A stretch of DNA of 54,232 bases from Candidatus Parcubacteria bacterium (GCA_041158505.1 JBEBBG010000019.1:1-54232); one strand, 5' to 3'; counted from the first letter of the stretch, positions 1 through 16,692 are shown. Notes: generated by a model not told the origin, from the letters alone. Numbers and translations: made by a program.

Positions 1-105
1 AACGGCGTCTTGGCAGATATCACATTCTGCAAGGGCAAAGAAACGGTGGAAGCAATTGCTTTCATGTTCGACGGTGACAACGGTGGCATGCTCTGCGTGC
101 CGTAA
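1..105 (+). CDS. 3' end of a hypothetical protein (partial)
   Basis: Frame open from base 1 (NGVLADITFCKGKETVEAIAFMFDGDNGGMLCVP*), followed by a terminator hairpin. Confidence 0.6.
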   Translation, partial: NGVLADITFCKGKETVEAIAFMFDGDNGGMLCVP

Positions 106-149
106 AGTAAAAATTAACCGCTTTTAGGATATTTGGCGCCCAAATCCTA

Positions 150-183
150 ACCTCAGACAACACGGTCTGAGGTTTTATTATTT
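150..183 (+). terminator. Rho-independent terminator
   Basis: AACCTCAGAC-aacacg-GTCTGAGGTT followed by a T-rich tract. Confidence 0.7.
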
Positions 184-307
184 ATGCAATTCAATTAACA
201 TTATGTGACAATCTTTTTCTCACTTTTTATTTATTTACAATACTCAATTTACTACTTTCAATACCGCTTAATATCTCATATTTCTCAAACACCCATTGTT
301 CTAGCTG

Positions 308-335
308 GTTCCAAGTTTCTAAAGGCATCTCCACA
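308..335 (+). repeat. boundary repeat copy 1 (subtype A)
   Basis: GTTCCA-AGTTTCTAAAGGCATC-TCCACA; lies within about 115 bp of similarity to 5535-5650. Confidence 0.8.
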
Positions 336-381
336 TTTCAAAGAATTTCAAATTATTTCGAGAAATTTATAATAATTTCAA

Positions 382-1113
382 TTAGTTTCTAAAATCTAAT
401 ACAAATGTTGTCTGAACAATATAATCAGAATCTTTTAAGATTTCTTTTGTTAGTTTTGCATCTTCTTCTGATAAGGAGTATTTTTTTATTAATATATTAG
501 ATAAACCTTTTACTTCCCTATCTTGAATAAGATCATATTTAATTTGAAGAGACTCAAATATATTTTTTAATTCATCTGCGTTGCTAAAATAAAATTCGTC
601 TCTTTTCAGAAGATCAATTTGGCCATCAAAAAGATCATCGGCAGATGTTTTTAATAAATCAGAGTTATTTTTTGAACCTTGATGTTGAATGATTGCAATA
701 CCTTTAGTTAATCTCTTAATATTACCAATTATTTTTTGCTGATTTTCTAAAGAATTCCAAGCTAAAACATACCTACACAGGGTTATGTCGAAGCACTTAT
801 CTTCTATAGGAATTTCAATCAGATTACTGTTAATCTTAACCTGAGCAATATTATTATTTAAATCATCCTCATTTATTTCAACAGCGGTTGTCTTAATTTT
901 ATAATCGTCCAACTTACTTATAAGGTCTTGTAAGAACTCTCCTCTGTGACTACCTAAATCTAAAACATTTATTTCTGAACCCGAATCAAACTCCTTTTTG
1001 ATTATTTTTGAAAAGAGATCTGCAGACTCCCCATAAACTGTCTTTATAGCCTGATCATCTGATAAACCATGAAATAGCCTGCCGGCAAATATTCCTTGTA
1101 TCTTTGATAACAT
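382..1113 (-). CDS. class I SAM-dependent methyltransferase
   Basis: VLDLGSHRG motif I, AVEIN, FDITLCRYVL; very AT-rich. Confidence 0.8.
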   Translation of the reverse strand: MLSKIQGIFAGRLFHGLSDDQAIKTVYGESADLFSKIIKKEFDSGSEINVLDLGSHRGEFLQDLISKLDDYKIKTTAVEINEDDLNNNIAQVKINSNLIEIPIEDKCFDITLCRYVLAWNSLENQQKIIGNIKRLTKGIAIIQHQGSKNNSDLLKTSADDLFDGQIDLLKRDEFYFSNADELKNIFESLQIKYDLIQDREVKGLSNILIKKYSLSEEDAKLTKEILKDSDYIVQTTFVLDFRN

Positions 1114-1162
1114 AAAAGAAAGAATATCATCTAAAGATTCCTAAATAAAGTCGCCATCAGAG

Positions 1163-1190
1163 GTGATAACTTCGTTCACTAATCTCCACA
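1163..1190 (+). repeat. boundary repeat copy 2 (subtype B)
   Basis: GTGATA-ACTTCGTTCACTAATC-TCCACA, identical to 1744-1771. Confidence 0.9.
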
Positions 1191-1250
1191 ATTTATAAAT
1201 ATTTCAATATATTTAAAATAATTTCAAACTATTAAGATATTACACTAATA

Positions 1251-1278
1251 TTGACTAATAATATATTTAATGTATAAT
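1251..1278 (+). promoter_or_regulatory. sigma70-type promoter
   Basis: TTGACT-N16-TATAAT with extended TG, upstream of the 1314 ORF. Confidence 0.65.
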
Positions 1279-1313
1279 TTTAAATGAATTCTGAACCCAC
1301 ACACTACAAATAA

Positions 1314-1673
1314 ATGAAGAAATTCTTGCTTATTCTCACCCTTGCCTGTGTCGCTCTTTCCGCGACAGCAAGCCCGCGATTTGATCGCAACAGAAACATG
1401 GCAGGCCAAGTAATTGACTTGGCCACAGGGAGAGGGGTTATTCCTCAGCATGCAGACAGTATCACCTCCGATGGTGCTCGGCTTTATTACAAAGTCGGGA
1501 TTGCAGAGGTGAAAGTGATTCGAGACTTCGAAGTCTACGAGATTGTCGGCACGAACTCTCAGAGTATCGCAGACTTCATCGGTTATCATGATTTCCTCGA
1601 AATCATCTCGGTACTCGCAAAAGAGGATGTTGCTGGTTTCATCATGGTGACTAAGAAAAAGTCAACACCCTGA
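1314..1673 (+). CDS. secreted hypothetical protein
   Basis: Signal peptide MKKFLLILTLACVALSATA; own promoter and downstream hairpin terminator (about 1693-1736). Confidence 0.75.
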   Translation: MKKFLLILTLACVALSATASPRFDRNRNMAGQVIDLATGRGVIPQHADSITSDGARLYYKVGIAEVKVIRDFEVYEIVGTNSQSIADFIGYHDFLEIISVLAKEDVAGFIMVTKKKSTP

Positions 1674-1743
1674 AATAACACGAACAACCGTCACCCCACC
1701 GAAAGACACCACGTCTTCGGATGGGGTGTTTTATTTCATACAA

Positions 1744-1771
1744 GTGATAACTTCGTTCACTAATCTCCACA
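1744..1771 (+). repeat. boundary repeat copy 3 (subtype B)
   Basis: Identical to 1163-1190; 3 bp from the stop codon of the phosphatase gene. Confidence 0.9.
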
Positions 1772-1774
1772 TCA

Positions 1775-2305
1775 CTAAACCTCAAAAGTATGTACCGACC
1801 CATTTGGAACATCAACATCTGATTTATTCTGAAACATTTTGTACATCAGCCTTATAATTCCCTTACTTGTTACAACTAATACCTTTTCGTATTCGAGCGT
1901 TTTTGCTTGGTGAATGAAAGTATGTATACGCTTTTCAACATCAATTACAGATTCGCCTCCATACTGGCGATAGTCATATGTTTGATTCTTATTATGAATT
2001 CGCAGCGTGTCACCATTTGGAATTTCAGACCACATCTTCCCTGCTAACGAACCAAAGTCCTGCTCGCGCAAACTATCATCAAAAATAATTTTCTTTTTCA
2101 ATGCATCAGCCACGATCTGAGAACTTGTTGCAACTCGTTTAAGCGACGAAGAAAAAATAATATCAAAATCTTTTGGTAGATCTGGAATACTATCCACCAT
2201 TTGTTTAACACCTTCTTCGTTTAAAGGTTCATCAACTGTTACGCCCTGTATTCTGTGTTGCTTATTAAAATCAGTTTCACCATGTCGTATAAAATAGAAG
2301 ATCAT
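1775..2305 (-). CDS. histidine phosphatase (phosphoglycerate mutase family)
   Basis: FIRHGET, SSSLKR, LREQDFG, GGES; start placed at MIFYF, 7 nt after TATAAT; second His replaced (VVTSKG). Confidence 0.85.
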   Translation of the reverse strand: MIFYFIRHGETDFNKQHRIQGVTVDEPLNEEGVKQMVDSIPDLPKDFDIIFSSSLKRVATSSQIVADALKKKIIFDDSLREQDFGSLAGKMWSEIPNGDTLRIHNKNQTYDYRQYGGESVIDVEKRIHTFIHQAKTLEYEKVLVVTSKGIIRLMYKMFQNKSDVDVPNGSVHTFEV

Positions 2306-2344
2306 ACATTGCATTATACAGCTTTTTAGTTTTTACAGATTGTG

Positions 2345-2372
2345 GTTCTAACATCCTCTACATTGCTCCACC
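2345..2372 (+). repeat. boundary repeat copy 4 (subtype C)
   Basis: GTTCTA-ACATCCTCTACATTGC-TCCACC(A). Confidence 0.9.
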
Positions 2373-2469
2373 ATCACTTGACTAAATACATTTTATATTA
2401 TATCGTCAACGATGCATCGTTCTTTGAAATTCGTTCAGAGAACACACTCAAACCCAAACCCGTTGAACT

Positions 2470-2844
2470 ATGAAACTACTCTCCCTGATTGCACTTGTCT
2501 GTGCAATCGTCATTCCGAACACTATCTTCGGCGAAGACATCAACCCGGATTCAAAACAACCTTCGCTGGTTGTGAACAAGGATCTCGGGTTCGTCTACCT
2601 GCAAAAATCAGTGCCTCCTGCAGACGTCCTGGCCCGCAAAGAAGAGGAGGTTTTGAAGGAAACCGCTCGCCAACTCTTCGAAAAGTGGACCGAACACAAG
2701 GGTCAGAAGATCTTGATCACGGGTTCTGAACCGAAGTGGATTGTGCACATGGAAAACAAGAAAGGATACGTTATCCTAACCGTTGCCTTTGCGCGCATTT
2801 CACACGCGATCGATTCCACGATAATCGCTCAAACAATCGACTGA
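2470..2844 (+). CDS. secreted hypothetical protein
   Basis: Signal peptide MKLLSLIALVCAIVIP; TTGACT at 2378 upstream; hairpin plus T tract downstream. Confidence 0.75.
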   Translation: MKLLSLIALVCAIVIPNTIFGEDINPDSKQPSLVVNKDLGFVYLQKSVPPADVLARKEEEVLKETARQLFEKWTEHKGQKILITGSEPKWIVHMENKKGYVILTVAFARISHAIDSTIIAQTID

Positions 2845-2954
2845 CCACCCTTCCCCTCCCGAATCAAAACAAAAGCCTTGTGGCTCGTTTGAATCGCGGG
2901 GCTTTTTCTTTTTAAACAACTTGCTACAAGACACCTTCTCCAACACGGAACGTA

Positions 2955-2982
2955 GTTCTAACATCCTCTACAGTACTCCACA
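2955..2982 (+). repeat. boundary repeat copy 5 (subtype C)
   Basis: GTTCTA-ACATCCTCTACAGTAC-TCCACA, 3 bp from the TrmB stop codon. Confidence 0.9.
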
Positions 2983-2985
2983 TAC

Positions 2986-3789
2986 TTAAACCGTCTTCAA
3001 AAATCCCTCCACATCCTTTGGATTCGGTTTGATTTCTTTTGAAACACTCCAGACCAAATCAAACTGAGCGCGAAGCAGCTGCGAAAAATCCTTACTACTA
3101 ATAATAAAACCAAACCCCTCCTTTCGAGATGAAACAACAGCCACCTTGTCTGCATAATTCCAATACCCCATGTCCCAGGTCATTTGTTTGGGCGCTACAC
3201 GAATTTCTCGTAAAAACTTTTTTCCACTGCCAAGTGCTGGTTGATCTTTGAAACTCACCGCATGTGACTTGGGCCAAATTGCATTGATGTGAATTCCACG
3301 TCGGATTCGCTCTCGGTTATGATTTTCAAAATACTCTTTTCCAAGAAAGGCAACCATCTCGCTAATCGGAAAGAGTGCTTGCGTCTCAATGTTTTCATAC
3401 CACAGCAAATCATTGAGTACCTGGCGCACACCCTCCACACCAGAATAAAACTTAATCTTCGGCTCAAACGACTCCCCACCAAAGTTCATGTGTGGCAAAA
3501 AGGATTCGACAGACGCTTTTTCTTTTTGGAGTTTTGCAATTTTTTCAGCAAGGAGACGTGGAATATTTTTAGGATCATCAATATAAAATACTTTTTTGTT
3601 GTCACGAATCTGCTCAAGCACCAACGTGTGCTGGATGAGGATTTTAAGATTGTCGTACACCGATGCTCGTGGCGTATTTAGGTTTTCTGCAATTTGCCGA
3701 GCGGTCGCACCAGGGTGTTCAACGAGATACGCATAAATCCGCTTTGTAGCTGTAGCAAACCCAAGTTCGTTAAAAAATGAATCAAACAT
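2986..3789 (-). CDS. TrmB-family transcriptional regulator
   Basis: N-terminal wHTH (TARQIAENLNTPRASVYDNLKIL), KIKFYSGVEG, YADKVAVVS C-terminal domain. Confidence 0.85.
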   Translation of the reverse strand: MFDSFFNELGFATATKRIYAYLVEHPGATARQIAENLNTPRASVYDNLKILIQHTLVLEQIRDNKKVFYIDDPKNIPRLLAEKIAKLQKEKASVESFLPHMNFGGESFEPKIKFYSGVEGVRQVLNDLLWYENIETQALFPISEMVAFLGKEYFENHNRERIRRGIHINAIWPKSHAVSFKDQPALGSGKKFLREIRVAPKQMTWDMGYWNYADKVAVVSSRKEGFGFIISSKDFSQLLRAQFDLVWSVSKEIKPNPKDVEGFLKTV

Positions 3790-3805
3790 GATGATATAGG
3801 TTATT

Positions 3806-3823
3806 TGTCGATTTTCGACGACA
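3806..3823. promoter_or_regulatory. palindrome, possible TrmB operator
   Basis: TGTCG-N8-CGACA (inner GTCGA-TTT-TCGAC) between divergent genes. Confidence 0.4.
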
Positions 3824-3884
3824 GTTTTACATTAAAACAATTACCTGCTACTGTCAACGAGAACTCAACCAAGCCCTTTACCCT

Positions 3885-4694
3885 ATGCAAATGAAACAAC
3901 TACTTCTGTTTGTTGTCTGTGCCTGCACATTCGCCACGCCTGCCCTAGCTCAACTGGAGATTGATGAGCAACCCTCATACCTCCCCGCCGACGTGAGTAT
4001 CAGTACAACTTACAACAGTCAGTACATCGCTTCTCGTATCAACCGCGTCATAACACCTGACCCGACCATCTGGACCCAAGCATCAATCAAATGGGAATCT
4101 GGCTTCTACTTCTCGTGGCTCGAAATTCGAGGCATTGATGATGTGTCACCAACACTCCCACCATTTGAAGAGACCCTGGTCACACTTGGCCAGTCATGGA
4201 AGTTGGATACCTTCGATTTCAAACTCGAAGCAACCATCATCAACCTCGACCCTGTTGCCAGGTGGGCAGCGCATGACCGGTATTCGTTCGACGCGTACAT
4301 TTCAAAGACCTTTACGTTCAAGAAAAACGGCAAGCACAGCATCACACCAGAACTTCGGATGTTGTGGTTCTGTGACACACAAGAACTTGATGGTGGTGTT
4401 CCCATCATCATGCCGAGCGTCGCACATAAATGGCAACAACCATTTGAATACGAGCACCTCACCATCCAAAGCAAGCTCGGGCTTTGCTGGGACGGTGGTC
4501 TCTATCGAAACAATACTGAAGGCGTTTTCCTGCAAACCGACATCGGACTACAATGGAATCTGGCGAAGTTCCTCGGAACACCTGCCACACTTACCCTACC
4601 TGGGTACAAATCCCTCATCCCCATCACACATGGAAATGACGGACGCGACGGTGTACACCACGTCTTCTATGGAGGAATCAGGTTTGATTTCTAG
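3885..4694 (+). CDS. secreted beta-barrel-like protein (TorF/porin-like)
   Basis: Signal peptide ending ALA, alternating amphipathic strands, ESGFYFSW, terminal YGGIRFDF. Confidence 0.6.
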   Translation: MQMKQLLLFVVCACTFATPALAQLEIDEQPSYLPADVSISTTYNSQYIASRINRVITPDPTIWTQASIKWESGFYFSWLEIRGIDDVSPTLPPFEETLVTLGQSWKLDTFDFKLEATIINLDPVARWAAHDRYSFDAYISKTFTFKKNGKHSITPELRMLWFCDTQELDGGVPIIMPSVAHKWQQPFEYEHLTIQSKLGLCWDGGLYRNNTEGVFLQTDIGLQWNLAKFLGTPATLTLPGYKSLIPITHGNDGRDGVHHVFYGGIRFDF

Positions 4695-4797
4695 ATTGTC
4701 CGTGATGGAATTGCTGCGTAAGGCTTGTTTAGGGTCCATCCCCTAGCAAGTCTTTTTCTTTCCTGCCTAGACATACTGACCACCAGAGCTCATCACA

Positions 4798-4825
4798 GTT
4801 CTAACATCCTCTACCGTGCTCCACA
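4798..4825 (+). repeat. boundary repeat copy 6 (subtype C)
   Basis: GTTCTA-ACATCCTCTACCGTGC-TCCACA, followed by inverted repeat AAAATAACCTTG/CAAGGTTATTTT (4831-4859). Confidence 0.9.
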
Positions 4826-4881
4826 CTCACAAAATAACCTTGTTTTTCAAGGTTATTTTTGTTTTTAAGGTCTTATTTTAC

Positions 4882-4910
4882 TTGACTTTTTGTGTAAAAT
4901 ATGCTAATAT
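4882..4910 (+). promoter_or_regulatory. sigma70-type promoter
   Basis: TTGACT-N17-TAATAT. Confidence 0.65.
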
Positions 4911-4959
4911 ATAAAGGAAATCAGCATAGTTTTGCTGATAAAACAAAAACGATCTTTTT

Positions 4960-5385
4960 ATGAAAAAACTTTGCACAATCCTTACAATCGTGTTCGCAAT
5001 CGTCGTCGGAATCGGATTCTTCTGGTCATCGCACAAGCGACACCAGGATGCAGTCGAGGATCAAGTATCCTCTTTGGTGCCGTGGCACCAACAAGAAGTA
5101 CGAGACTACGCCGAGATGACCTCAACGCTCAAGGTCGGCGACCTCGTTCTTGTAATCGACAACAAAGTCGACAAAAATGAACGCCACCTCGCGGTGACCA
5201 AGGTCGATGAATTCCCAGGGAACCGTCGCATCCACCTCGAAGGTAGGTACGACACCCCGGAAACCATGTTCCTTTGGTCTGGGCTTGAGGAAGGACTGAA
5301 AGTGAATAACACCTATTCGTTCCATCCAATCTATCAAGACAGCCCTGGCTACACCCAGCTTGCGACCTGGTTCTGGATCCAATAA
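4960..5385 (+). CDS. membrane-anchored hypothetical protein
   Basis: N-terminal TM helix; downstream hairpins and terminator (about 5392-5468). Confidence 0.75.
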   Translation: MKKLCTILTIVFAIVVGIGFFWSSHKRHQDAVEDQVSSLVPWHQQEVRDYAEMTSTLKVGDLVLVIDNKVDKNERHLAVTKVDEFPGNRRIHLEGRYDTPETMFLWSGLEEGLKVNNTYSFHPIYQDSPGYTQLATWFWIQ

Positions 5386-5601
5386 AACTCAAAGGTAGGC
5401 CGACTACCTTATCCGAAAGGATGAATCGTCGGAATTGCCGCAAGAGAAATCCTGCGGCTTTTTTCTTTCCTAATCTTAACTGGTTGTATTAACTACTTGT
5501 GTCTCTTTTTACTTAACAAATCATTTCAAAACAACACTCATTTCCCTATTTTCTAAAGCCAGTATTGATTCGTAACTTTCAAACACCCAGCTTTCTAGCT
5601 G

Positions 5602-5629
5602 GTTCCATGTTTTCAATGGTATGTCCACA
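5602..5629 (+). repeat. boundary repeat copy 7 (subtype A)
   Basis: GTTCCA-TGTTTTCAATGGTATG-TCCACA; flanks similar to copy 1. Confidence 0.8.
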
Positions 5630-5701
5630 TTTCAAAGTATTTCGAAATTACCACTTTTATAGAACTATAACGACAACGCATGCGCTGCTATACTTACCTT
5701 A

Positions 5702-6085
5702 ATGCTAAAAGTAAAAACTACAATAAAACAAAGCCCGCTGCATGGATTAGGCTTGTTCGCAGACGAGGATATAAAAGAAGGTACTGTCATCTGGGAATTT
5801 GAACCTGGATTAGATATTTCAATTACAAAAGATGAGTATGATAGCTTATCTCAAATGCAAAAAGATTTTTTTGATCATTACGGGTACTGGAGCGACGAAT
5901 TACATTTGTATATTTGTGCAGCAGATGGTTGGCGTTTTACAAATCACTCCACAAATCCAAACACTGCGACAATACATGCTGCCCCATCTAACGAAGGTCA
6001 GGATATTGCCATACGAGACATTAAAGCTAGCGAAGAACTTTTATTTGATTACCGTTCATTTGGAGAAAACCCTGAACAAATATAG
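5702..6085 (+). CDS. SET-domain protein
   Basis: GLGLFA, RFTNHSTNPN, RDIKASEELLFDY. Confidence 0.9.
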   Translation: MLKVKTTIKQSPLHGLGLFADEDIKEGTVIWEFEPGLDISITKDEYDSLSQMQKDFFDHYGYWSDELHLYICAADGWRFTNHSTNPNTATIHAAPSNEGQDIAIRDIKASEELLFDYRSFGENPEQI

Positions 6086-6091
6086 ATCACA

Positions 6092-6118
6092 GTTCTACCA
6101 TTCGCTGCGTTGTCCACA
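6092..6118 (+). repeat. boundary repeat copy 8 (degenerate, 27 bp)
   Basis: GTTCTA-N15-TCCACA, preceded by ATCACA as in copy 6; marks the right end of the array. Confidence 0.65.
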
Positions 6119-6147
6119 TCCTTGTATAAAAATCTGAGCGAGTGTCT

Positions 6148-6969
6148 TTATTGCTCAACCCTCCGTCCCACAAACCCAAAAATATTTTTATACCCATTTT
6201 GGCTAAACAGTACTGGGAAAAAATCGTACTCAGCAGGCACGGCTTCACCTGCCGCATTGCGATACACGGTCTGCCCTTTCTGCACGAGCTGTAAATTAGC
6301 AATCTGAGGATCAAGCTGATCACCTTCATCCTTTGGAAATTCCTCCTCAACGATAAACACTGCAGGTGCATGTCCAGTTTCAGAGACGACAGCGGCATCT
6401 GTATCAGTAAGCATTCCCTGCGCGTGCAATATTTTCTTGATATCCGTAATAATTTTTTGCGTAGCTGCAGGATCAGCATCATTGCCATACTCAAATGCAA
6501 TGCCCGCTTTTGCAGATGATAGAAGCACGTTCCCTTCTGTTACTCTCATAACCAGCGCAACAGATGGCTGCACACTATCGATAAGTCGCTGTGTCTGCTG
6601 ATCAAGATGATCGACAATCACCGCATCTCGAAGTGAACTTTCAGTAGAGTGAATATCAATAAACACATCTACTTGTGCTGCAATCGCAGACAGATAGAAC
6701 GCAAGCTGCTCCTCATAGCTTCCTTGTTCATTTCCGACACCAACACGGTTAATGTCATGGTTAATGTATCGCACACCCTTCTCAAGTGCTTGCTCATTTG
6801 CAATGTTTGTAAGCAGTGTCCCCTGCTCAGGCACAACGTCTGCAAATACTTGTGTCACCGCAAGACCAACCCGTTCATCACCATGTGTGCACCCATTGAT
6901 AAATACAATCGGCCTTTGTGCTGTTGCAATACTATCTAGTAGTTTTGTGTATTTTTCTTTGGGATTCAT
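6148..6969 (-). CDS. succinylglutamate desuccinylase/aspartoacylase family (M14-like)
   Basis: THGDE, DINR, IDIHS, FEYG motifs. Confidence 0.85.
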   Translation of the reverse strand: MNPKEKYTKLLDSIATAQRPIVFINGCTHGDERVGLAVTQVFADVVPEQGTLLTNIANEQALEKGVRYINHDINRVGVGNEQGSYEEQLAFYLSAIAAQVDVFIDIHSTESSLRDAVIVDHLDQQTQRLIDSVQPSVALVMRVTEGNVLLSSAKAGIAFEYGNDADPAATQKIITDIKKILHAQGMLTDTDAAVVSETGHAPAVFIVEEEFPKDEGDQLDPQIANLQLVQKGQTVYRNAAGEAVPAEYDFFPVLFSQNGYKNIFGFVGRRVEQ

Positions 6970-7001
6970 TGTCTACAAATTTTTAAAGAAAAAGGCATAC
7001 A

Positions 7002-7787
7002 TTATGCCTGGACTGTTTTGAGGTGCGCGTTTCTACACCGTTCGTAACACATCCTCCCCCAGAGCGCGACCTGCGCCGGATCATCAGTGTTATCAAACAT
7101 CCGAAACTCAATCGTACCATGGGCCGAAATGCGAATCAGGTGCCAACAACGACGAGGGTCATCAACAAATCCATGTTCGCAGTAATACTGGTGCATGTGT
7201 GCACTGTCCGTGTATGGAGCAGGACGAAAGTTGGGTGCCATGGTTTGGTAGATTGACATCCTTTCACCCTGCGTCTTGTTCCCAGCCTCAACAAGTGTGT
7301 CGAGATCTTGGATAACATCGTTGTACACGTGCAACGCCGTTTCCATATCAGGCATGCCGATATGGAAATGCGTACCAGCTACGCGACATGCTGCAAGCAA
7401 CACATCCTGCGGCAACTGAGCAGCAATCTGTTGATAGCGACCCGTTGGATCAGGGTAGACATCAAGCGGCATCGTTGCTGGAGCAACCGTTTCATACCTG
7501 ACGCCAAGACCGTTCATTGAAAGCTTTTGTTGCAGCATCACCTGCTGCTCCTCAACTTTCTGTTCCATGGAATCAATCAAGGTAGGGCCAACGCGACTCT
7601 CCAACTGACACGCGGACAGTTCGTAGCCAAACGCGTCATCTTTGAGCAACGAGAGAGCGTATTGTGACAAGGGAACAATTTCATCGTCCGCATTGACCAC
7701 AAATGCTTCTCGTTCGCACCCAACGTACCACGCATACTGCGGTTTAAACGCAAACCTATTACGGAACAATTCGAGTGACGTATTCAT
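7002..7787 (-). CDS. carboxylate-amine ligase (GCS2/YbdK-like)
   Basis: VGCERE, ELSACQLE, GTHFHIG, TIEFRMFD. Confidence 0.8.
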   Translation of the reverse strand: MNTSLELFRNRFAFKPQYAWYVGCEREAFVVNADDEIVPLSQYALSLLKDDAFGYELSACQLESRVGPTLIDSMEQKVEEQQVMLQQKLSMNGLGVRYETVAPATMPLDVYPDPTGRYQQIAAQLPQDVLLAACRVAGTHFHIGMPDMETALHVYNDVIQDLDTLVEAGNKTQGERMSIYQTMAPNFRPAPYTDSAHMHQYYCEHGFVDDPRRCWHLIRISAHGTIEFRMFDNTDDPAQVALWGRMCYERCRNAHLKTVQA

Positions 7788-7791
7788 GTTT

Positions 7792-8010
7792 TAAAAAGAA
7801 CGAAAAAGACTTCTTGTGTCTCATGGCAACAAACGAGAAACAAGAAGTCTTTAGGTTTCTTGACTCGTACATTACCGAAGTAACAGATATCAATTACCCC
7901 ATGATAACGGAGGGTGTGCCGGGTTCTCACTAATGCAAGAACCACCTTGCCATTTGGCGATCTAGCCCCAACCCTGCATACGCAGGAACTAAATCAAAGG
8001 TTTTAACTCT
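7792..8010 (-). promoter_or_regulatory. structured 5' leader with terminator (candidate riboswitch/attenuator)
   Basis: Upstream TTGACG-N17-TAATTT, several hairpins, then AAAGACTTCTTG...CAAGAAGTCTTT plus U-tract about 20 nt before the ATG. Confidence 0.55.
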
Positions 8011-8104
8011 AGGTTGAAATTACCAGAATTGAAACAAGACGTCAATTTATTAAAGGTAATCTATTGACTCCCAGAATCTTTTTATGCAATATGACCTTAA
8101 ATCA

Positions 8105-8175
8105 GGGGGTATAATTCAATGGTAGAATGACGGTCTCCAAAACCGTATATGTGGGTTCGATTCCCACTATCCCCG
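8105..8175 (+). tRNA. tRNA-Trp(CCA)
   Basis: Acceptor GGGGGTA/TATCCCC, anticodon arm ACGGT-CTCCAAA-ACCGT, T-loop GGTTCGATTCC; CCA end not encoded. Confidence 0.95.
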
Positions 8176-8271
8176 CGTTCTTCAACGTAATCCATCCTAA
8201 AAAGAAAAAGCCCGGTACGCAGCACGCGCCGGGTATATTTATTTCATCAAACTAGACCTAGAGCTGAAGGC

Positions 8272-9426
8272 TTAGATTTTTTGCACGACCAATCCGACAT
8301 ACGCACCGTGCTCGTCTCCAGACTCGCACAGCTGCATATCCAGATTAAGCAACGGCTCGATAAACCCTTCCCGAAAGAGTTCCCGAGGCATTAGGGATGT
8401 CACGAAGGGAAAGGTGTTCAAGCGTTGCAATGCAAAGCGCCGTTCCACCATGTCCCGAATTTCTTGGACTGAATACATGCGGGCGTGCACCGGGATTGTT
8501 CCCCGGACACCTGCCAAATCGACCTCGAGGGTATTCATAATCGGATTAAAGATTGCCGCAATTGAGTTTTGCCACGGCAATATCGACCGATGTACGAGTG
8601 CGTCCGCGTTATAAAAAGAGAGGTATGCGTAACCGCCCCTAGTAAGCACGCGTCGCACTTCACTCAGCAGACTTTGGATGTCGACGATATCTCCACATGT
8701 GCCATTATTCATGACAACGAAAGAGACCGTTCCATCCTCAAGTGGAATTCCCTGCTCAAGGTCGCGCTGAACGAACTGAATCCTGTGCCGTTGATTGGAA
8801 TTGACTTTGCCCTGTGCAACAGCGACCATCGCGGGAGAAATGTCATAGCCCACAAGAGAGCGGAATCCAGCCTTGTGATGAAAGATCATTCGCCCCGTAG
8901 CGGTACCCAGATCGACAAAAGTGCCGCGATGATCGAGCGATTCAATCGTCTCGCTAATGATTCGATTCTCAATCTGGTAGGTAAAACGCGTAGCAGGGCA
9001 GCCATCCTGGTGCGTATCGTAGGTTTCGGCAACAGACTCCGTGAGTCTGAGCAAGTTTCTTCGGAGGGCTTCTGGCGATCGATCACCAGCATTGTTACCC
9101 TCCTGACTACTTGTTGCCTCGTCTCGCAGCATTGTTTGGTGTTTCACGCCGGCGTTGATAACCGTGTGCAACAGTGCTTGCGCAAGGTATGGATCAATAC
9201 CAACTTCAGCAGCAACCTGACCAATATGCTGTAACCGCGACTGCTCCCGGCCGAGTACGACGATAGGATCTGTCCCTTTCGTGTCAACAACCAAGGTAGA
9301 CAGGTCAATGCGACGCTTCACCAGACGAACAAGATGTTCATCAAGGACACCGAGTCGCTCTCCAATACCTTTGAGCCACCGGTCTTTCTGTTCTGCGCTT
9401 ACCGCGCTAGGAGGATTTGTGTTCAT
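8272..9426 (-). CDS. AroQ chorismate-mutase-like domain fused to a class I SAM methyltransferase
   Basis: LDEHLVRLVKRR..K..RE..KHQ N-terminal domain; VDLGTATG, GYDIS, EVRRVL. Confidence 0.7.
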   Translation of the reverse strand: MNTNPPSAVSAEQKDRWLKGIGERLGVLDEHLVRLVKRRIDLSTLVVDTKGTDPIVVLGREQSRLQHIGQVAAEVGIDPYLAQALLHTVINAGVKHQTMLRDEATSSQEGNNAGDRSPEALRRNLLRLTESVAETYDTHQDGCPATRFTYQIENRIISETIESLDHRGTFVDLGTATGRMIFHHKAGFRSLVGYDISPAMVAVAQGKVNSNQRHRIQFVQRDLEQGIPLEDGTVSFVVMNNGTCGDIVDIQSLLSEVRRVLTRGGYAYLSFYNADALVHRSILPWQNSIAAIFNPIMNTLEVDLAGVRGTIPVHARMYSVQEIRDMVERRFALQRLNTFPFVTSLMPRELFREGFIEPLLNLDMQLCESGDEHGAYVGLVVQKI

Positions 9427-9477
9427 GATTAATTGATAAGTAACGTTTACAAAGCATATTACATACCTAAAAAGAAA

Positions 9478-9508
9478 AAACCAGCCGGCGACGAACGCTG
9501 GCTGGTTT
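9478..9508 (-). terminator. terminator after trpS
   Basis: AAACCAGCCGGCG/CGCTGGCTGGTTT hairpin with adjacent A-run. Confidence 0.6.
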
Positions 9509-9529
9509 GTAAAATCCGGTACCGTGGCC

Positions 9530-10525
9530 TCAGTAAAGGGTCAGACCAAATCGATCCTGAACGAGAGCAAGGGTCTCTGCATACCTAGCACGGGCACGTT
9601 GACCGCCAGATTTCAAAACATCAATGACGTAATCATCCTGATTTGCCAATCGTGCGCGCGCCTGCTGAAACGGTTCGATGATTTCCGCAAGCGTATCGAG
9701 CATCCGCTCTTTACACTCTCGGCAACCAATACGCGCCTCCATACACTGGCGAGCAATCGTCCGATCATCCCTTTCCCCCGGCGTGATGATTTCATGCATC
9801 GGGTAGATAGACATGCAGCCATTGAATGGATCACCAGGATCAGAGAGACGCACGCGCTTCTCGTCGGTAACTCCTCGTTTCATGTAGCGCTCGCGGATCT
9901 CGTCCATGGGACTGTTGATGTCGACAGCATTGTCTGCCTCCGACTTCCCCATTTTTTTGCCGTCGAGGCCAGGCACCTTGACCATGTTCTCAACCATTTG
10001 GGGAACCACAAGGGTTTCACCAAAACGGTTATTGAAACGTTTCGCAAGGTCCCTGGCGAGTTCAACATTTGGCACCTGATCTGCACCCACAGGCACAAGC
10101 GTTGCTTGTGCACCGAGGATATCAGCAGCCATCAACACTGGGTACGAGAGAAGCCCCATTGTCTGACGCTGAGGATGTTTTGCCATCAGGTCTTTGATGG
10201 TTGGCAACTGCGCGACTTGGTTGTACGACTGCAGCATACCGAGCAGCAATGCGAGCTGTGAGATTTCGGGCACACTCGACTGCGCAAAGATAATCGACTG
10301 CTCAGGATCAAGCCCTGCAGCCAAATAGTCTTTTGCAATTTCAACGAGATTCCCCCGAAGTTCCTCGGGGTTATCGAGCGTCGTGAGTGTGTGGAGATCA
10401 GCGATAAAGTACAGACTCGTACAATCATCACTTGCGTACTGCACGAACTGCCTGACGGCACCGAGCAGATTACCAACATGCAACTTTCCAGTCGCACGAA
10501 TTCCAGAGAGAATTGTGGGTTTCAT
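9530..10525 (-). CDS. trpS: tryptophan--tRNA ligase
   Basis: SGIRATG, HVGN, YPVLMAADI, VPVGADQ, KMGKS. Confidence 0.95.
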   Translation of the reverse strand: MKPTILSGIRATGKLHVGNLLGAVRQFVQYASDDCTSLYFIADLHTLTTLDNPEELRGNLVEIAKDYLAAGLDPEQSIIFAQSSVPEISQLALLLGMLQSYNQVAQLPTIKDLMAKHPQRQTMGLLSYPVLMAADILGAQATLVPVGADQVPNVELARDLAKRFNNRFGETLVVPQMVENMVKVPGLDGKKMGKSEADNAVDINSPMDEIRERYMKRGVTDEKRVRLSDPGDPFNGCMSIYPMHEIITPGERDDRTIARQCMEARIGCRECKERMLDTLAEIIEPFQQARARLANQDDYVIDVLKSGGQRARARYAETLALVQDRFGLTLY

Positions 10526-10809
10526 TCGGAGGGTGGAGGGGGTGATGTGTGAAGATAACTGAATTCAAAATTAACAGGGAGAATTTCCTCGTTGCATGTG
10601 CCACAAGTAATTTTTCCCTGAACTTCTTCACCGCTTTGGTATTTTTCACATTTCGTGCACCAGATAAGCGGACGTTTACAGCGCGGACACCATCGCTTCT
10701 TTGCAGTTTTGTCCCTGCCCGGAAGGATGCTGCCCGACGTCGTGAGTTGGCACGCAAGGCACCAGAACGACACCAGGACGGTATCGTGTTCTTTTTGTGG
10801 AGAGAACAT
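10522..10809 (-). CDS. small zinc-ribbon protein (4x CxxC)
   Basis: CLAC, CPRC, CTKC, CGTC; stop overlaps the trpS start (ATGA). Confidence 0.55.
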   Translation of the reverse strand: MFSPQKEHDTVLVSFWCLACQLTTSGSILPGRDKTAKKRWCPRCKRPLIWCTKCEKYQSGEEVQGKITCGTCNEEILPVNFEFSYLHTSPPPPSE

Positions 10810-10922
10810 GGTTATTTCCTTATGTTTCAATGCTGATATTACGTAAAATGAAGAAAAATACAAGAATCTTCAAAAGTTCTTGCTCAAACTCTGGTGATTT
10901 CTTTTTCTGCTATACTACACGC

Positions 10923-11144
10923 ATGGCATTTCTCACCATCATCACCATGTTGGCACCAATCATCTTGGGCTTGGCACTGCTGCTTCTGATGCTCAATCTT
11001 ATGTTGCTGGCAGTTGCACTCATCGGCGGCAAGAAAGCACGACAGACACCAGCGTACAAAATCGGCATGAAGATGCTTAAAATTCTCTTTGTGATTGTAC
11101 TGGTCACACTTGCGGTTGTTGCACTACACGGCACCCTGCGTTAG
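10923..11144 (+). CDS. small 2-TM membrane protein
   Basis: Two hydrophobic helices; TATACT 6 nt before the ATG. Confidence 0.65.
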   Translation: MAFLTIITMLAPIILGLALLLLMLNLMLLAVALIGGKKARQTPAYKIGMKMLKILFVIVLVTLAVVALHGTLR

Positions 11145-11285
11145 ATGTTTTTAAAACACTCACACACGAATTGTTTAGTATATTGACAATATAAATAATT
11201 CAATACATAAATAATAAAGGTGTTTTCCTCCTGCGCGTTGATCGCAATTCCGCGGTCGCCACAACCCATGAACTGGGTATTCGCA

Positions 11286-11690
11286 ATGGAAAACAAAAAA
11301 ATGAGAACGATTTCGTTCTCGGCAAATATTGGGGTGGTCGCCGGATACGGCCACCAGAATCAAAACGAAGAAACGCCCGCCGACATTGTTGGAAAGGTCT
11401 GGCAAGGAATTGCCGCCGAGTACTTCAGAGCAAATGGTGTCTACGTGGGAGCTGTCATCGCAGACGCGAAGACGGTCTACCACAAGGACTGGGGATGCCC
11501 GGGCGGAGGTGAAAACACTGCCCTCGTTACTGGGACGTGCAACCCCCATTTCACCGACACCACCGCCTACAAAGCAGCTGTGACGGAAGTGCTACACCTT
11601 GTCGCAAGGCAGTTGGGTCAATCAACAACCCAACTCACCTTCTCGGAGGTCGAGTTCGAGTACTTCGACCTCCGCGATTCTGAGAAGTAA
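11286..11690 (+). CDS. hypothetical protein
   Basis: Coding-like ORF (YHKDWGCPGGGE); terminator about 11711-11746; start uncertain. Confidence 0.7.
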   Translation: MENKKMRTISFSANIGVVAGYGHQNQNEETPADIVGKVWQGIAAEYFRANGVYVGAVIADAKTVYHKDWGCPGGGENTALVTGTCNPHFTDTTAYKAAVTEVLHLVARQLGQSTTQLTFSEVEFEYFDLRDSEK

Positions 11691-11745
11691 TCGCCACACC
11701 CTATCCACCCAACAGGGTCTTGAGCAATCGGGACCCTGTTTTTCT

Positions 11746-12375
11746 TTACCACAACACAACCAACAGTAGCACCGCCACCACAAACAACGTATACTCCGTC
11801 ACCGAAATCCAGTTGAGCTTGAGGTAGTAGTGATCAACCCAATCTTCAATACCCCACCGGCGTAGGTACAAAGGAAGTTCTGCTTCTTCCCATGATGCAA
11901 CGAGGCGGAGCCGGCGTTCTGCATCAGGCAGCACATTCCAGTCACCATCATGTGCAAGCATTGATTTCATCCGATTCGCACGCCGTGCAAGCAGCTTGTA
12001 CCGAGTGTTGCGTAGTGGCCACAACACGGGAATGCCCCACCCCGTACCATACAAATCGTTTACAAAGTGCAGCATCGTGGCAATCAGAAAAAGTGTTCCG
12101 AAAAATGGTGCAACGTACACAGCGACCGCGCCAACAATCAAAAACAAAAGTGGAAAGTGGAAACCAGACCGATGGTCATGGGCGTACGCCGCCGAGGCTG
12201 CGAGTTTGTGTCGCTTAATGAGTTCAGGTAGCGCATCGAGATCGGGACACATTGCAAACCCAATACCGAGCAGGAGATGCCACCAGAGCAGCTCTGTCTG
12301 TGTTAGGTGTGCGGCAAGCAACATTGCAAAAATGCCGTTTGCAATATCTGCCAAAAGCGCGAGTGCGTACTTCAT
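11746..12375 (-). CDS. membrane metal-dependent hydrolase (YdjM-like)
   Basis: PDLD, HDHRSGFH, LHFVND, GWGIPVLWP. Confidence 0.75.
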   Translation of the reverse strand: MKYALALLADIANGIFAMLLAAHLTQTELLWWHLLLGIGFAMCPDLDALPELIKRHKLAASAAYAHDHRSGFHFPLLFLIVGAVAVYVAPFFGTLFLIATMLHFVNDLYGTGWGIPVLWPLRNTRYKLLARRANRMKSMLAHDGDWNVLPDAERRLRLVASWEEAELPLYLRRWGIEDWVDHYYLKLNWISVTEYTLFVVAVLLLVVLW

Positions 12376-12420
12376 ATAGGAGTAGCGTAGCACAAAAATA
12401 AGTGCTAACCTCAACCCCGT

Positions 12421-12975
12421 ATGTTCTCCACACTCACACCCCCGGAACGGCGCTCTGCATCAGCAGAAGCGATCACTAAAACCCTCACTGGTAACCCTCG
12501 TGCTTTGGATCGGTACCGATTCATGCAGCCGTCCGAAGCAAACGGAACGCTGGTGAAACACCGAATCACGGTGCCCACACTCGCGACGGTCCTCATGCGC
12601 GAAGGAGATATCATTCCCTTCCACGTGCATGGCCGGCGCGACAAGCGGTACGTCTTTAGCGGCATCGGAAGGTTCAGCGTCTTCCTCTACCGCCCCAGAG
12701 GCGGCAAGAGACAAGCCCTTATCCGCGAGGTGATCCAAACCGGACCAGAAGACAGATTGGCGACCGTGGAGGTGCCGCGTGGCACCTTCCATGCCGTCGT
12801 CTGTCACTACGTCAATCGAGCAAATGCCGATTTTTCGGAAACAGATGGCCGGGCAACATTTGACGTTGTTGCAACCGGAAACGACCCGACGGACATTCAC
12901 TGGGATCCGAATCTCGAGCAACTGCTCGCACACGTTTCGTTCAATCCCAAGATTGATTCCCTGCCGTGGGCCTGA
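12421..12975 (+). CDS. cupin-fold protein
   Basis: PFHVH and VEVPRGTFHAV cupin motifs. Confidence 0.6.
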   Translation: MFSTLTPPERRSASAEAITKTLTGNPRALDRYRFMQPSEANGTLVKHRITVPTLATVLMREGDIIPFHVHGRRDKRYVFSGIGRFSVFLYRPRGGKRQALIREVIQTGPEDRLATVEVPRGTFHAVVCHYVNRANADFSETDGRATFDVVATGNDPTDIHWDPNLEQLLAHVSFNPKIDSLPWA

Positions 12976-13041
12976 CGTTTGCGCAATGTGCTGTTCTCTC
13001 GTGCTCACTGGTAACCCCGGTGAGCTTTTTCTTTTCCCTGC

Positions 13042-13461
13042 TTACTCAGGTTTCGTCTTGCGGTATCCAATCACCACGGACGCAGCGAGCGCCATAATGA
13101 CGAGGTTCTTAATGATGTACTGTCCTTCAAGTGATGGAACACCAAATGCAATCCAACTAACGTGCGGCACGAGGATGAGTGGCAACACGGTTGTAACCAT
13201 GTGTGGAATCAACAGAATCGCAGCAATCGTTTGCGTCTTTCGAGAGAGGAACAGCACACCGATGAGCATTTCGGCCCAGCCGAGAAAAATGATAAACGAG
13301 TCGAGTGGCCACCACGTGATGGTAACGTCACGAAGCGCATCAACGAGTGGTGTCGCAGGCGACAAACCAAGCACCTTCAGTAATCCAAACCAGAAAAAGA
13401 TAATGAAGAGTGCGATGTGGGCAAACATGTACGTTGCGTAGCGTGCGGTTGGTGTTTTCAT
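13042..13461 (-). CDS. DoxX/YkgB-like membrane protein
   Basis: FFWFGLLK, GWAEMLIG, EGQYIIKNL. Confidence 0.75.
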   Translation of the reverse strand: MKTPTARYATYMFAHIALFIIFFWFGLLKVLGLSPATPLVDALRDVTITWWPLDSFIIFLGWAEMLIGVLFLSRKTQTIAAILLIPHMVTTVLPLILVPHVSWIAFGVPSLEGQYIIKNLVIMALAASVVIGYRKTKPE

Positions 13462-13581
13462 ACAATGATTTTATCACGGCAAACCGACACGTCACAGATA
13501 TTTTTGCAGTATGCAAGAAAGTATAAAAAGAAAAAGAGTGGCGCGCGAACGCGCCACTCCACAAAAACTCGTTGGCCAACT

Positions 13582-14523
13582 TCAGTGAAGCCACGTCTTG
13601 AGGTACGCGAGCGTGGTTCGGTAGTACTTCTCTGGATCAACCGCAGGAGGAAGCCCTTCTCCGAGCACGGGGATTTGCTCCCGGACGACCTGACCGAACG
13701 GCTCGGCCACGATGGGGCCTTCGTAGTTCATACCCCGGAGCGCTAGCCCGATTTGTTCCCAGCCGCGGGAGTTGTCGTGCACCCATGCGTTTTTGTTGCG
13801 ACCAGGAATTTCCCGGCCAGCAAAGCCGTGCGCGTGCAAGTAGCCGAGCATCGACTCACCTGTTTCATGCGTACCGGCCGCCCGAAGCTCGAGCACCGCG
13901 TTGAGACGACGCTGGTACATGTGGAACGTGTCTGCGTGCCAGCGGAAACGCGGCCCGAGGGCGCGGCAAATTAGAAGCACCGGCTCAAGACCACCGAGCG
14001 CTTTGTCCTCTTCGGGACGCAGGTACTCGATGTTGATCTGGAGGTTGAGTTCTCCCACCTGCGGCAGGATGTGGTCGTAAAAGCTGATTGCCCGTGTCAC
14101 GATTTCCTCCTGACAAAACTCATCGTAGTCGCGACCAAGCACGAAGCAGCTCGGACCGGTGATGTGCCGGACCCGAAGCCCAGCTCCCTGGAGAGCCTGA
14201 ATGTACGCAAAGTCCTCATCGAATGTCTTCAGCACCTCAGCAAAGGCTTTCGGGGAGCATTCTCCGATGGGATCTCCGAACGATCCATCGCCCGGGAAAA
14301 ACCGGCAGTACGAAACTTCGGAAATGCCGCCCAAGAGCACTGCATCCGCGGCTTCTTTGGCAGACATGAAGTTGAGCGGTTTGCCGACGATTTCAAAAAT
14401 CGTGGCCCCAGCTTGATGTGCGATACGGACCGCGTCGGTGAGCAGGTTGCCCTGCCCCGGATTGAGCACGCCTTGAAAGGCGAGCCAGTGTGCGCCGAGC
14501 TGGCGCTGAGTCTCAGTGTTCAT
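13582..14523 (-). CDS. sugar isomerase/epimerase (xylose-isomerase-like TIM barrel)
   Basis: IEYLRPEE, ADTFHM, YLHAH, AEPF metal-ligand pattern. Confidence 0.75.
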   Translation of the reverse strand: MNTETQRQLGAHWLAFQGVLNPGQGNLLTDAVRIAHQAGATIFEIVGKPLNFMSAKEAADAVLLGGISEVSYCRFFPGDGSFGDPIGECSPKAFAEVLKTFDEDFAYIQALQGAGLRVRHITGPSCFVLGRDYDEFCQEEIVTRAISFYDHILPQVGELNLQINIEYLRPEEDKALGGLEPVLLICRALGPRFRWHADTFHMYQRRLNAVLELRAAGTHETGESMLGYLHAHGFAGREIPGRNKNAWVHDNSRGWEQIGLALRGMNYEGPIVAEPFGQVVREQIPVLGEGLPPAVDPEKYYRTTLAYLKTWLH

Positions 14524-14656
14524 AACGAATGGTTGTTTTCAAGTGCGGCACATACCGATGCGCTGCTTTACAGATTCAGGCATACACTACAATGGATTCA
14601 CAATCAGTCAAGGAACGTACCCTATACAGTTGCACATCTGCTACAATACTTCTCAT

Positions 14657-15163
14657 ATGCGTATTCATATTAAAAAGTACTTACCAGAATTTGTATACGG
14701 CGGCATTGATGGAGCTGTTACCACATTTGCAATTGTTGCCGGTGTTGTTGGTGCGTCCCTCTCCCCAACCATTATCCTCATTCTTGGCTTTGCAAACGTT
14801 CTTGCAGACGGCTTCTCGATGGGTATTTCAAACTTCCTGTCACAAACATCGGAAAATGATTTGCGAGATGACACCCGAAAAAATGCACGCAAAACATCAC
14901 TCGCAACGTTTATCTCCTTTGTCATTGTTGGTCTCATCCCACTCTCGCCGTACATTGTTGGTGCGATAGCAAACTACGCAGGTGACGCACTCTTTGTATG
15001 GTCAACGCTGCTAACCCTCGTCGCGTTCTATTGGATTGGCTACATGAAAGGTATTTTTACACATGGTAAAAAGCACCGTGCGGCATTCCAGACGCTTGCT
15101 ATGGGTACCGCAGCAGCTTTGATCTCGTATATCGTAGGATACGCACTCAGCTTTGTGGCGTAA
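14657..15163 (+). CDS. VIT1/CCC1 metal transporter
   Basis: VYGGIDGAVTTFA, ADGFSMG. Confidence 0.9.
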   Translation: MRIHIKKYLPEFVYGGIDGAVTTFAIVAGVVGASLSPTIILILGFANVLADGFSMGISNFLSQTSENDLRDDTRKNARKTSLATFISFVIVGLIPLSPYIVGAIANYAGDALFVWSTLLTLVAFYWIGYMKGIFTHGKKHRAAFQTLAMGTAAALISYIVGYALSFVA

Positions 15164-15270
15164 GGACACAAAAGCACGGACAAATTGATTGCCATTTCAC
15201 ATCTCACATGCTACCCTGACGACACAGCTCGGCACTAGGGTCGAGCCTTTATTATTGACCGAAAAATCCC

Positions 15271-16691: not shown

Positions 16692-16692
16692 C

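Follow-up and report, generated by a model that had tools for sequence, protein, structure and literature searches.

Probable attachment-site remnants of small, serially inserted mobile units downstream of ssrA in a Candidatus Parcubacteria genome

Genomes of the Candidate Phyla Radiation (CPR), or Patescibacteria, are tiny and poor in recognisable mobile elements, and the route by which they acquire accessory genes is unclear. The window analyzed here is the whole of contig C19 from a Candidatus Parcubacteria bacterium (GCA_041158505.1 JBEBBG010000019.1:1-54232), 54,232 nucleotides (nt) long; the assembly to which it belongs, G000, comprises 723,057 bp over 19 contigs, is listed as 100% complete and, at ~0.7 Mb, is of the CPR type. 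The first 6,118 nt of the window hold eight short repeats with compact gene units between them, and we describe this array, its position downstream of ssrA, the gene for transfer-messenger RNA (tmRNA), and the probable origin of the repeats as attachment-site remnants of mobile units.

The repeat motif GTKMYA-N16-TCCACM matched seven times in the window, at 308, 1163, 1744, 2345, 2955, 4798 and 5602, on the plus strand only, whereas shuffled sequences gave a mean of 0.10 matches and reached seven in none of 100 shuffles. An N15 form matched once, at 6092, also on the plus strand, which alone is not significant (at least one match in 10 of 100 shuffles). The motif scan thereby reproduced every copy, position and orientation given in a preliminary description made from the sequence alone, which had also allowed that a motif scattered genome-wide would speak against an array. 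A looser scan of all 19 contigs returned 14 matches, namely the eight array copies and six stray, unrelated-looking ones scattered over contigs C6, C9, C11 and C15; nowhere else in the 723 kb does the motif form a cluster. Three subtypes are distinguishable among the eight copies: A (308 and 5602), B (1163 and 1744) and C (2345, 2955 and 4798), with the 6092 copy being a degenerate 27-nt C-type.

Read from base 1, the array opens on the plus strand with a cargo-gene 3' end (1..105) belonging to the first unit, that nearest ssrA, as part of an open-ended open reading frame (ORF) whose remainder lies in an assembly gap, followed by two hairpins and a T-run (124..184) which, as read from the sequence, would form a terminator-like end of that gene. 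On the minus strand comes orphan tail A1 (227..334), an ORF of 35 codons plus stop that we read as the detached 3' end of a large serine recombinase (LSR) gene on the basis of codon-position variability, profile alignment and frame, and it overlaps site A1 (308..335), which, like all eight sites, lies on the plus strand and was identified by its motif and a 27-nt spacing. The following units carry a methyltransferase dependent on S-adenosylmethionine (382..1113, minus; Pfam Methyltransf_31/11; guanine-plus-cytosine (GC) content 0.25-0.33), site B1 (1163..1190, identical at 28/28 positions to the 1744 copy and to two copies in G003, a genome of the same genus), a small protein whose N-terminus reads like a signal peptide (1314..1673, plus), site B2 (1744..1771), a branch 1 histidine phosphatase (1775..2314, minus; Pfam His_Phos_1, E 5e-33), site C1 (2345..2372), another small protein with a signal-peptide-like N-terminus (2470..2844, plus) and site C2 (2955..2982). 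Thereafter lie a TrmB-type helix-turn-helix regulator (2986..3789, minus; Pfam TrmB, E 9e-10) and, divergent from it, a 269-aa protein with a signal-peptide-like N-terminus (3885..4694, plus), site C3 (4798..4825), a hairpin-plus-promoter module homologous to sequence found after ssrA (4826..4913, plus), a 141-aa protein with an N-terminal hydrophobic segment (4960..5385, plus), orphan tail A2, again of 35 codons plus stop (5521..5628, minus; the best match of the tail hidden Markov model, E 3e-19), site A2 (5602..5629, with the motif and the 27-nt spacing), a SET-domain protein (5702..6085, plus; Pfam SET, E 3.5e-15) and finally the degenerate site C4 (6092..6118), the furthest from ssrA and presumably the oldest of the array. 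A second SET-domain gene, 41% identical to the one in the array, is located at 46074-46439.

Pfam thus bore out the methyltransferase, histidine phosphatase, TrmB-type and SET-domain genes that had been assigned to these intervals, and left the four cargo ORFs at 1314..1673, 2470..2844, 3885..4694 and 4960..5385 without a family. The called ORFs also agree with the earlier distances between sites and stop codons, two of 3 bp (1771/1775 and 2982/2986) and one of 6 bp (6085/6092), and with the earlier remark that the units vary in composition, their GC content ranging from 0.25 to 0.52 against 0.48 for the genome and 0.47-0.51 for its contigs. A Pfam search found no recombinase in window positions 1-6118.

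With regard to the position of the array, no tmRNA gene was called by ARAGORN in the window or in G000, nor by Rfam in window positions 1-9000 at E<=5 or above its cut-off across G000. The assembly gap upstream of base 1 is bridged by a run contig, X2 record 9 (4,252 nt, depth 12.7), which starts with 24 nt of the T-arm and acceptor end of ssrA, continues with 95 nt resembling window positions 4819-4913 (7 differences) and a further 925 nt, and then runs through window positions 1-3208. The first of its 1,044 nt upstream of base 1 falls in the ssrA T-arm, which places the ssrA 3' end ~1.0 kb upstream of the window and leaves one further unit, of ~1.35 kb, between it and site A1. The array does, then, continue upstream as had been supposed, by one more unit and the end of ssrA; of the two things proposed for inspection there, a target RNA gene and a recombinase, the former was found, and as to the latter, G000 has no LSR of the ssrA-associated family, which in relatives is seen at that place. 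In G000 itself, smpB lies at the extreme end of contig C13 (C13:13547-14079), ~100 nt from the contig end, and the sequence after it resembles a tmRNA 5' end, but with AGGGATG instead of GGGGATG; that C13 ends in the start of the tmRNA gene is suggestive only. The att repeats probably broke the assembly at this point, which would be why ssrA is missing from an otherwise complete genome.

A comparison of 19 oriented loci revealed a conserved frame, with recG-ftsH-smpB on one side and infC, rplT and a beta-CASP RNase (Pfam) on the opposite one, of which the window carries the infC side. The order ftsH-smpB-ssrA, a variable stretch, an A site in ssrA orientation and infC-rplT was observed in 11 of the relatives' loci, and Rfam detected a tmRNA gene immediately behind smpB in 11 of the 19 loci, where an A site pointing the same way follows 0.8-6.3 kb further downstream. 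In three other genomes, an A site followed a tRNA-Ala(TGC) gene at 0.5, 0.6 and 5.1 kb, likewise downstream and in the same orientation; tmRNA and tRNA-Ala have the acceptor end ...TCCAC in common. The array therefore sits where tandem islands sit, just downstream of the target RNA gene and in its orientation, and its unit boundaries also repeat the 3' end of the target gene: compared with the ssrA ends of relatives, the target-end block reads CATCTCCACA in A1, ATCTCCACA in B, CTCCACA in C and TCCACA in A2 and C4. An integrase gene inside each island beside the target gene, another feature of such islands, is present in the complete elements of relatives and absent from the G000 array. The module at 4826-4913 shares 84% and 77% identity with its counterparts behind two G003 sites, resembles the terminator after the G003 ssrA gene and is a paralogue of the 95 nt next to the ssrA end in X2 record 9.

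The geometry of the repeats was informative as to the class of attachment site. The smallest identity between the two ends (attL and attR) of complete elements in relatives is TCCAC, so that crossover would take place within TCCAC. The distance from GTTC to CCAC was 22 nt in all 31 true T-arms of the fetched loci and 27 nt in 30 of the 37 sites without a T-stem, including the window copies at 308, 2345, 2955, 4798 and 5602; the 6092 copy has 26 nt, and the B-type copies start with GTGATA and are outside the scope of this count. Hence, the GTTCNA block of the repeats lies 5 bp further out than the GTTCGA of the T-loop. Where Rutherford et al. 2013 (PMC3783163) treat the spacing of serine-integrase sites, the motif for the zinc-ribbon domain is 5 bp nearer the centre in attB than in attP. 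Our sites share with those described there a distal motif 5 bp further from the crossover in the element-borne site and a short identity between partner sites, and they differ from serine-integrase sites in right-hand arms without clear symmetry. The 28-mers thus look like P-type half-sites plus core, with the ssrA T-loop region as the matching B-type half-site, and GGTTCNA would, from its spacing, be the putative zinc-ribbon-domain motif.

That the 28-mer is a displaced true tRNA or tmRNA 3' end was ruled out, as it has no T-stem and is 5 nt too long. We also looked for the hallmarks of other site classes. None of the eight sites, taken with 10-nt flanks, formed an attC-like hairpin (minimum free energy no lower than -2.2 kcal/mol, z -1.6 to +1.6), and inspection by eye showed no dif-like dyad symmetry, the 11-bp ends of the subtypes agreeing at 3-5 of 10 positions at most after reverse complementation; the earlier statement that the repeats are neither attC nor dif sites thus held. 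Elements that exploit Xer and dif (IMEX, pdif) use a site of 28-31 bp with two inverted recombinase-binding arms around a 6-8-bp spacer, and no such inverted arms were seen in the copies when read by eye. In the genome G024 (C25:4550-4577), we came across a hybrid 28-mer with 11 C-type nt on the left and 17 B-type nt on the right, as if arms had been exchanged.

The two A copies form the right-hand ends of conserved blocks of ~110 nt, each with one of the 35-codon ORFs, which begins at a GTG, the complement of the CAC in TCCACA. Over codons 10-20 of 28 distinct copies, variability amounted to 1.37 bits at third codon positions versus 0.79 and 0.83 bits at the others; since third positions are the most variable, the tail is constrained as a protein. 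A profile search of a sample of 301 genomes from the order recovered the tail in 33, mostly as one copy, and four of four tail sequences had no match in Pfam or PHROGs at E<=5. No conserved ORF accompanies the B and C copies, in which the GTG frame is open for only 7-10 codons. When the C-termini of 14 LSR ORFs were read, 12 turned out to be the antisense translation of the RNA gene (e.g., ...DVEMGGIEPPC), and the other two, which continue ...DVEITENEWNQIL... and ...DVDLSNNSFNRL..., resemble the orphan ORFs of the window. The orphan tails keep the same frame through GTGGAG/GTGGAC as the LSR C-termini, and the GTG 'start' of the tail is an internal Val codon in the LSR genes of relatives. Alignment of the tail profile by hhalign with residues 528-555 of the 564 of an unsplit LSR gave E 8e-4, and a second alignment gave E 0.014 (probabilities 25% and 3%).

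Taken at face value, the small ORF looks like the last ~35 codons of an LSR gene that were left at the far end (attR) on integration, and we conclude from these comparisons that the LSR gene probably contains attP within its 3' end; an earlier idea, by which the ORF would be a gene in its own right or encode a directionality factor, was abandoned after the LSR C-termini had been read. Among viral contigs of IMG/VR, 18 stretches matched the A-type pattern, several of them like tRNA ends, and none of the 18 had the WNQLE..WVFE tail. When the unsplit LSR was searched against PDB sequences, all matches were to catalytic domains (3guv, 3bvp), which left the tail region uncovered. At one relative's locus (L021, G043:C1), B-like sites in the 8384-8470/9002-9638 region carry a different conserved left extension of ~45 nt (tail VE[LM]S[ED]RFKNR..), which suggests that several tail families exist. 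At the same locus, the sequence to the right of the A site comprises a terminator and then an inverted fragment of the ssrA 3' end.

As to the enzymes, G000 encodes one tyrosine recombinase, Xer-like (NCBIfam), on contig C15 and one LSR, on contig C7. In four relatives, the gene adjoining ssrA or tRNA-Ala is an LSR (Resolvase, Recombinase and Zn_ribbon_recom domains), either intact or in fragments, with homologues in 72 of 301 genomes of the order at E<=1e-20. In 15 of 17 LSR matches (16 loci), the 3' end of the gene runs antisense into the true T-arm of ssrA or tRNA-Ala, and in the other two, G229:C12 and the second LSR of G245:C2, it crosses a P-type 28-mer. An A-tail and an LSR occur on one contig and the same strand, 2.8-4.9 kb apart, in G220, G319, G039, G245, G027 and G235 (the last two with LSR fragments; a seventh case, G272, an unpublished genome, is left out of this count). 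A cognate LSR is thus seen with A-type sites in six relatives and not in G000, and there is no direct link for the B and C types. Complete elements of relatives measure 4.9-8.3 kb with an intact LSR and 3.4-4.4 kb with LSR fragments, and the G000 units without an LSR 0.46-1.8 kb. LSR pseudogenes are present as fragments in G027 and G235 and with in-frame stops in G039, G258 and G245, and these stops mean that decay does happen. Above the Rfam gathering score, a group I intron was detected near the tRNA-Ala of G220 (L019 13579-13826) and a LOOT RNA inside the G039 element (L029 10133-10244).

The C7 gene of G000 was considered as the enzyme of the array and disfavoured, being 26% identical to the ssrA-associated family and distant from the array. 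It encodes 560 aa (L014 = G000:C7:31133-34585; ORF 286-1968, minus strand) and runs antisense across a sequence resembling the 3' half of a tRNA (~405-435), which lies ~40 codons before the stop and has a perfect T-arm and acceptor strand; ARAGORN called no tRNA at this stretch. This LSR gene, too, may span its own attachment site.

The array was also compared with those of relatives. Arrays with at least two sites within 10 kb were present in 5 of 33 genomes of the family: G003 has B- and A-type copies (four by the strict pattern and seven by a looser one, including TCAACA and TCTACA variants), and G013, G011 and G323 have three A copies each. The B 28-mer is the same in two G000 and two G003 copies and is matched at 26/28 positions in G327, from another genus. 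The infC-rplT regions of G000 and G003 are 71% identical over 839 nt, and the identity of the B 28-mer in so distant a congener suggests recent traffic of small units with conserved arms. Ten cargo and flank proteins of the window had no match in the relatives' loci. A contig from a co-occurring relative joins the ssrA T-arm at position 1763, inside B2, to a histidine-phosphatase unit ~92% identical to that of the window. The comparison of orthologous loci proposed earlier thus did yield a difference bounded by the repeat, with this unit placed directly after ssrA, and such a breakpoint with true ssrA inside the repeat upheld the claim that the repeats are recombination sites delimiting horizontally acquired units.

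The same sample held hybrid junctions, one with the left part of a B-type site and the right flank of A1, another with the terminator of the unit encoding the 141-aa membrane-type protein followed by a B site. Two further joints were set aside, 156->1159 in X2 for being too short for interpretation (33 other letters between, shorter side 32 nt) and 5553->282 as a chimeric A block from another organism. Circular junctions or empty sites were not seen in the run contigs, which cannot show rare forms. Beyond the last repeat, window positions 6119-17000 hold ~14 genes and a tRNA-Trp (8105-8176) up to infC at ~16.3 kb; these did not cluster with genes of 18 relatives' loci, bar one cluster common to a single relative, and may be older island material without recognisable sites.

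We consider it likely, and hold this with good confidence, that the eight repeats were left behind as attachment-site remnants when mobile units inserted in succession at the 3' end of ssrA. The array would then be a genomic island of a known kind, in miniature and without a recombinase, and not a new recombination system; the searches directly returned the motif, the adjacency to ssrA, the architecture of LSR and site in relatives, the 5-bp shift and the difference bounded by a unit. A complete element would consist, in order, of ssrA or tRNA-Ala, an LSR gene running on the opposite strand into the RNA gene, cargo and the 28-mer. Each 27-28-mer would combine an element-side, attP-type ('P') LSR half-site with the TCCAC(A) core common to the acceptor ends of ssrA and tRNA-Ala. 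As the attachment site would lie within the 3' end of the LSR gene, integration would cut off the last ~35 codons, and the ORFs beside the two A-type repeats would be those codons. In this manner, eight units, all carrying one or two cargo genes whose composition is foreign, would have piled up between ssrA and the core genome, presumably with the latest arrivals closest to ssrA. An LSR would have catalyzed these particular insertions, and the units may either have arrived without a recombinase or have lost it later.

Several observations weigh against this explanation. Canonical LSRs do not recombine attP with attL, and serial insertion would need each incoming element to regenerate an attB-like site, of which only the terminator module after C3 and after ssrA was seen. 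The ssrA-associated LSR family has no match in G000 at E<=1e-20, the distant C7 enzyme does not belong to it, and the arrays of five relatives (G003, G013, G011, G043 and G019) contain neither an LSR nor a tyrosine recombinase. The homology scores between tail and LSR are weak, since the segment is short, and it is mainly position and frame that carry the argument; the B and C sites appear tied to an LSR through shared ends and spacing alone. The contigs that place ssrA upstream come from two runs of the probable source sample and so are not independent of G000, besides being contigs and not reads. Finally, no trace of an LSR 3' end lies to the right of any of the eight sites, and this, together with the identical B 28-mer, the unshared cargo and the hybrid junctions within one sample, makes for a poor fit to simple in-situ decay.

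These last observations are at the same time what speaks for a different view of what moves, with the same site chemistry, namely a live cassette platform in which recombinase-less P'-cargo-P units are themselves mobile, an LSR encoded elsewhere (genome, plasmid or phage) acts in trans and ssrA serves in the manner of attI. The conservation of the B 28-mer across G000, G003 and G327 against an otherwise diverged infC-rplT region, the shared terminator-promoter module after C3, the tight packing with genes 3-6 bp from sites and no LSR remnant at any of eight junctions, and arrays without an LSR in six of six family genomes checked would all be expected of such cassettes. Against them stand the lack of any circular junction or empty site in contigs to which rare forms are invisible, and of any candidate for the trans-acting LSR, with G011 and G019 having no LSR at all at 93-95% completeness and LSR numbers in the five relatives ranging from 0 to 6. 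Moreover, the pseudogenes of relatives show decay in situ, and element sizes form a continuum (8.3, 3.4, 0.5 kb). We regard a live platform as possible, though we would not presently bet on it. Still more tentative, and in our judgement rather doubtful, is its extension to the whole order, whereby an LSR-driven capture platform anchored at ssrA or tRNA-Ala would have ~28-bp P-arm cassettes circulating between species and moved in trans. If true, this platform would be a functional analogue of the integron from a different enzyme family, and the exchange of the last ~35 residues of the LSR for ssrA-antisense residues could switch its activity or directionality.

It is very unlikely that a tyrosine recombinase, either the Xer-like enzyme acting on IMEX or pdif-like modules or an integron-type integrase, uses the sites. 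It is true that G000 and five relatives each have a Xer-like protein as their sole tyrosine recombinase, that the 28-bp site has the length of dif and that, according to Islander (PMC4383910), tyrosine integrases are used by many tRNA and tmRNA islands elsewhere. Yet the arms show no dyad symmetry by eye and the sites no hairpin, the Xer-like gene is on another contig, is present exactly once in each of the five relatives, never at the array, and looks orthologous in all of them (~143 bits each), and integron-integrase models scored 127 bits (cut-off 265) and 76 bits (cut-off 435), that is, no IntI was found. An LSR abutting the target gene in nearly all the matches and the 5-bp shift, an LSR signature, likewise point to a serine enzyme. 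Hardly credible, in turn, is that the repeats are not recombination sites, being instead a chance cluster or a regulatory or translation-start element of small minus-strand ORFs. Two copies do start a conserved 35-codon ORF, with the complement of TCCAC giving GTG and a T-rich stretch before it, but chance is excluded by the shuffles, the B and C copies lack such an ORF, the supposed start is an internal codon in relatives' LSR genes, and in 14 loci the copies go together with ssrA or tRNA-Ala, with true-ssrA breakpoints inside the repeat.

The reading of the repeats as serial attachment-site remnants finds its closest published counterpart in the ssrA islands of Dehalococcoides (PMC3146451). 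According to that study, the islands follow directly on the single-copy ssrA in tandem, with direct repeats related to the ssrA 3' end at their borders, and next to attL they encode, on the reverse strand, a CcrB-like large serine recombinase whose 3' end overlaps ssrA; some units lack an integration module and are discussed as cis-mobilizable elements, and the authors speculate that the recombinase gene is complete only on the circular form. Tandem units after ssrA, repeats of the target end and, in relatives, an LSR overlapping ssrA are common to both systems, the two LSR families being likened by architecture and not by sequence. The preliminary description had suggested an undescribed array type, and this did not stand, since the LSR elements at ssrA and tRNA-Ala in relatives match the Dehalococcoides architecture. 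The differences concern the repeat, which there is a 20-bp true copy of the ssrA end with insertion in the T-loop. Here, the core shared with the target amounts to just 5-10 nt at its very 3' terminus, and an element-borne arm makes up the remainder of the 28-mer. A second difference lies in the units, which measure 0.46-1.8 kb here, hold one or two genes and lack any integration module; the host, with its ~0.7-Mb genome of CPR type, and tRNA-Ala as an alternative target are further ones.

With integrons, both class 1 and chromosomal (IntI, attI, attC), the array has in common compact, mostly single-gene, recombinase-less and heterogeneous units at one fixed site and a high turnover between relatives. 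In contrast to them, it has neither an adjacent IntI nor attC hairpins, its units lie on both strands with promoters and terminators of their own, its anchor is an RNA gene and not an attI with a Pc promoter, and the enzyme implicated is a serine and not a tyrosine recombinase. For tRNA/tmRNA islands and tycheposons, Islander (PMC4383910) and Hackl et al. (bioRxiv 10.1101/2020.12.28.424599) describe successive integrations that push older elements inward. Partial tRNA copies, degenerated elements and variable islands in small genomes are shared with those systems, which, as described there, mostly employ tyrosine integrases and units of kb to tens of kb. Among the papers listed by a literature search, none was, by title and abstract, on serine recombinase, ssrA or tmRNA islands in Patescibacteria or CPR, subscription journals and supplements lying outside the search. 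Three features appear to be unreported, namely the occurrence in a CPR genome, units so small and devoid of a recombinase, and a recombinase gene that spans its own attachment site.

For annotation, a practical rule follows from the locus, which is to seek 27-nt-spaced GTTCNA...TCCAC copies downstream of ssrA or tRNA-Ala, and the compact natural pairs of LSR and att site, with the gene spanning attP, are possible recombination tools. With regard to the biology of these bacteria, the locus shows one route by which accessory genes are acquired. The tmRNA gene marks a fixed hot spot whose position is conserved in many families within one order, and foreign genes for a methyltransferase, a SET-domain protein, a phosphatase and secreted and membrane proteins have been stacked at it.

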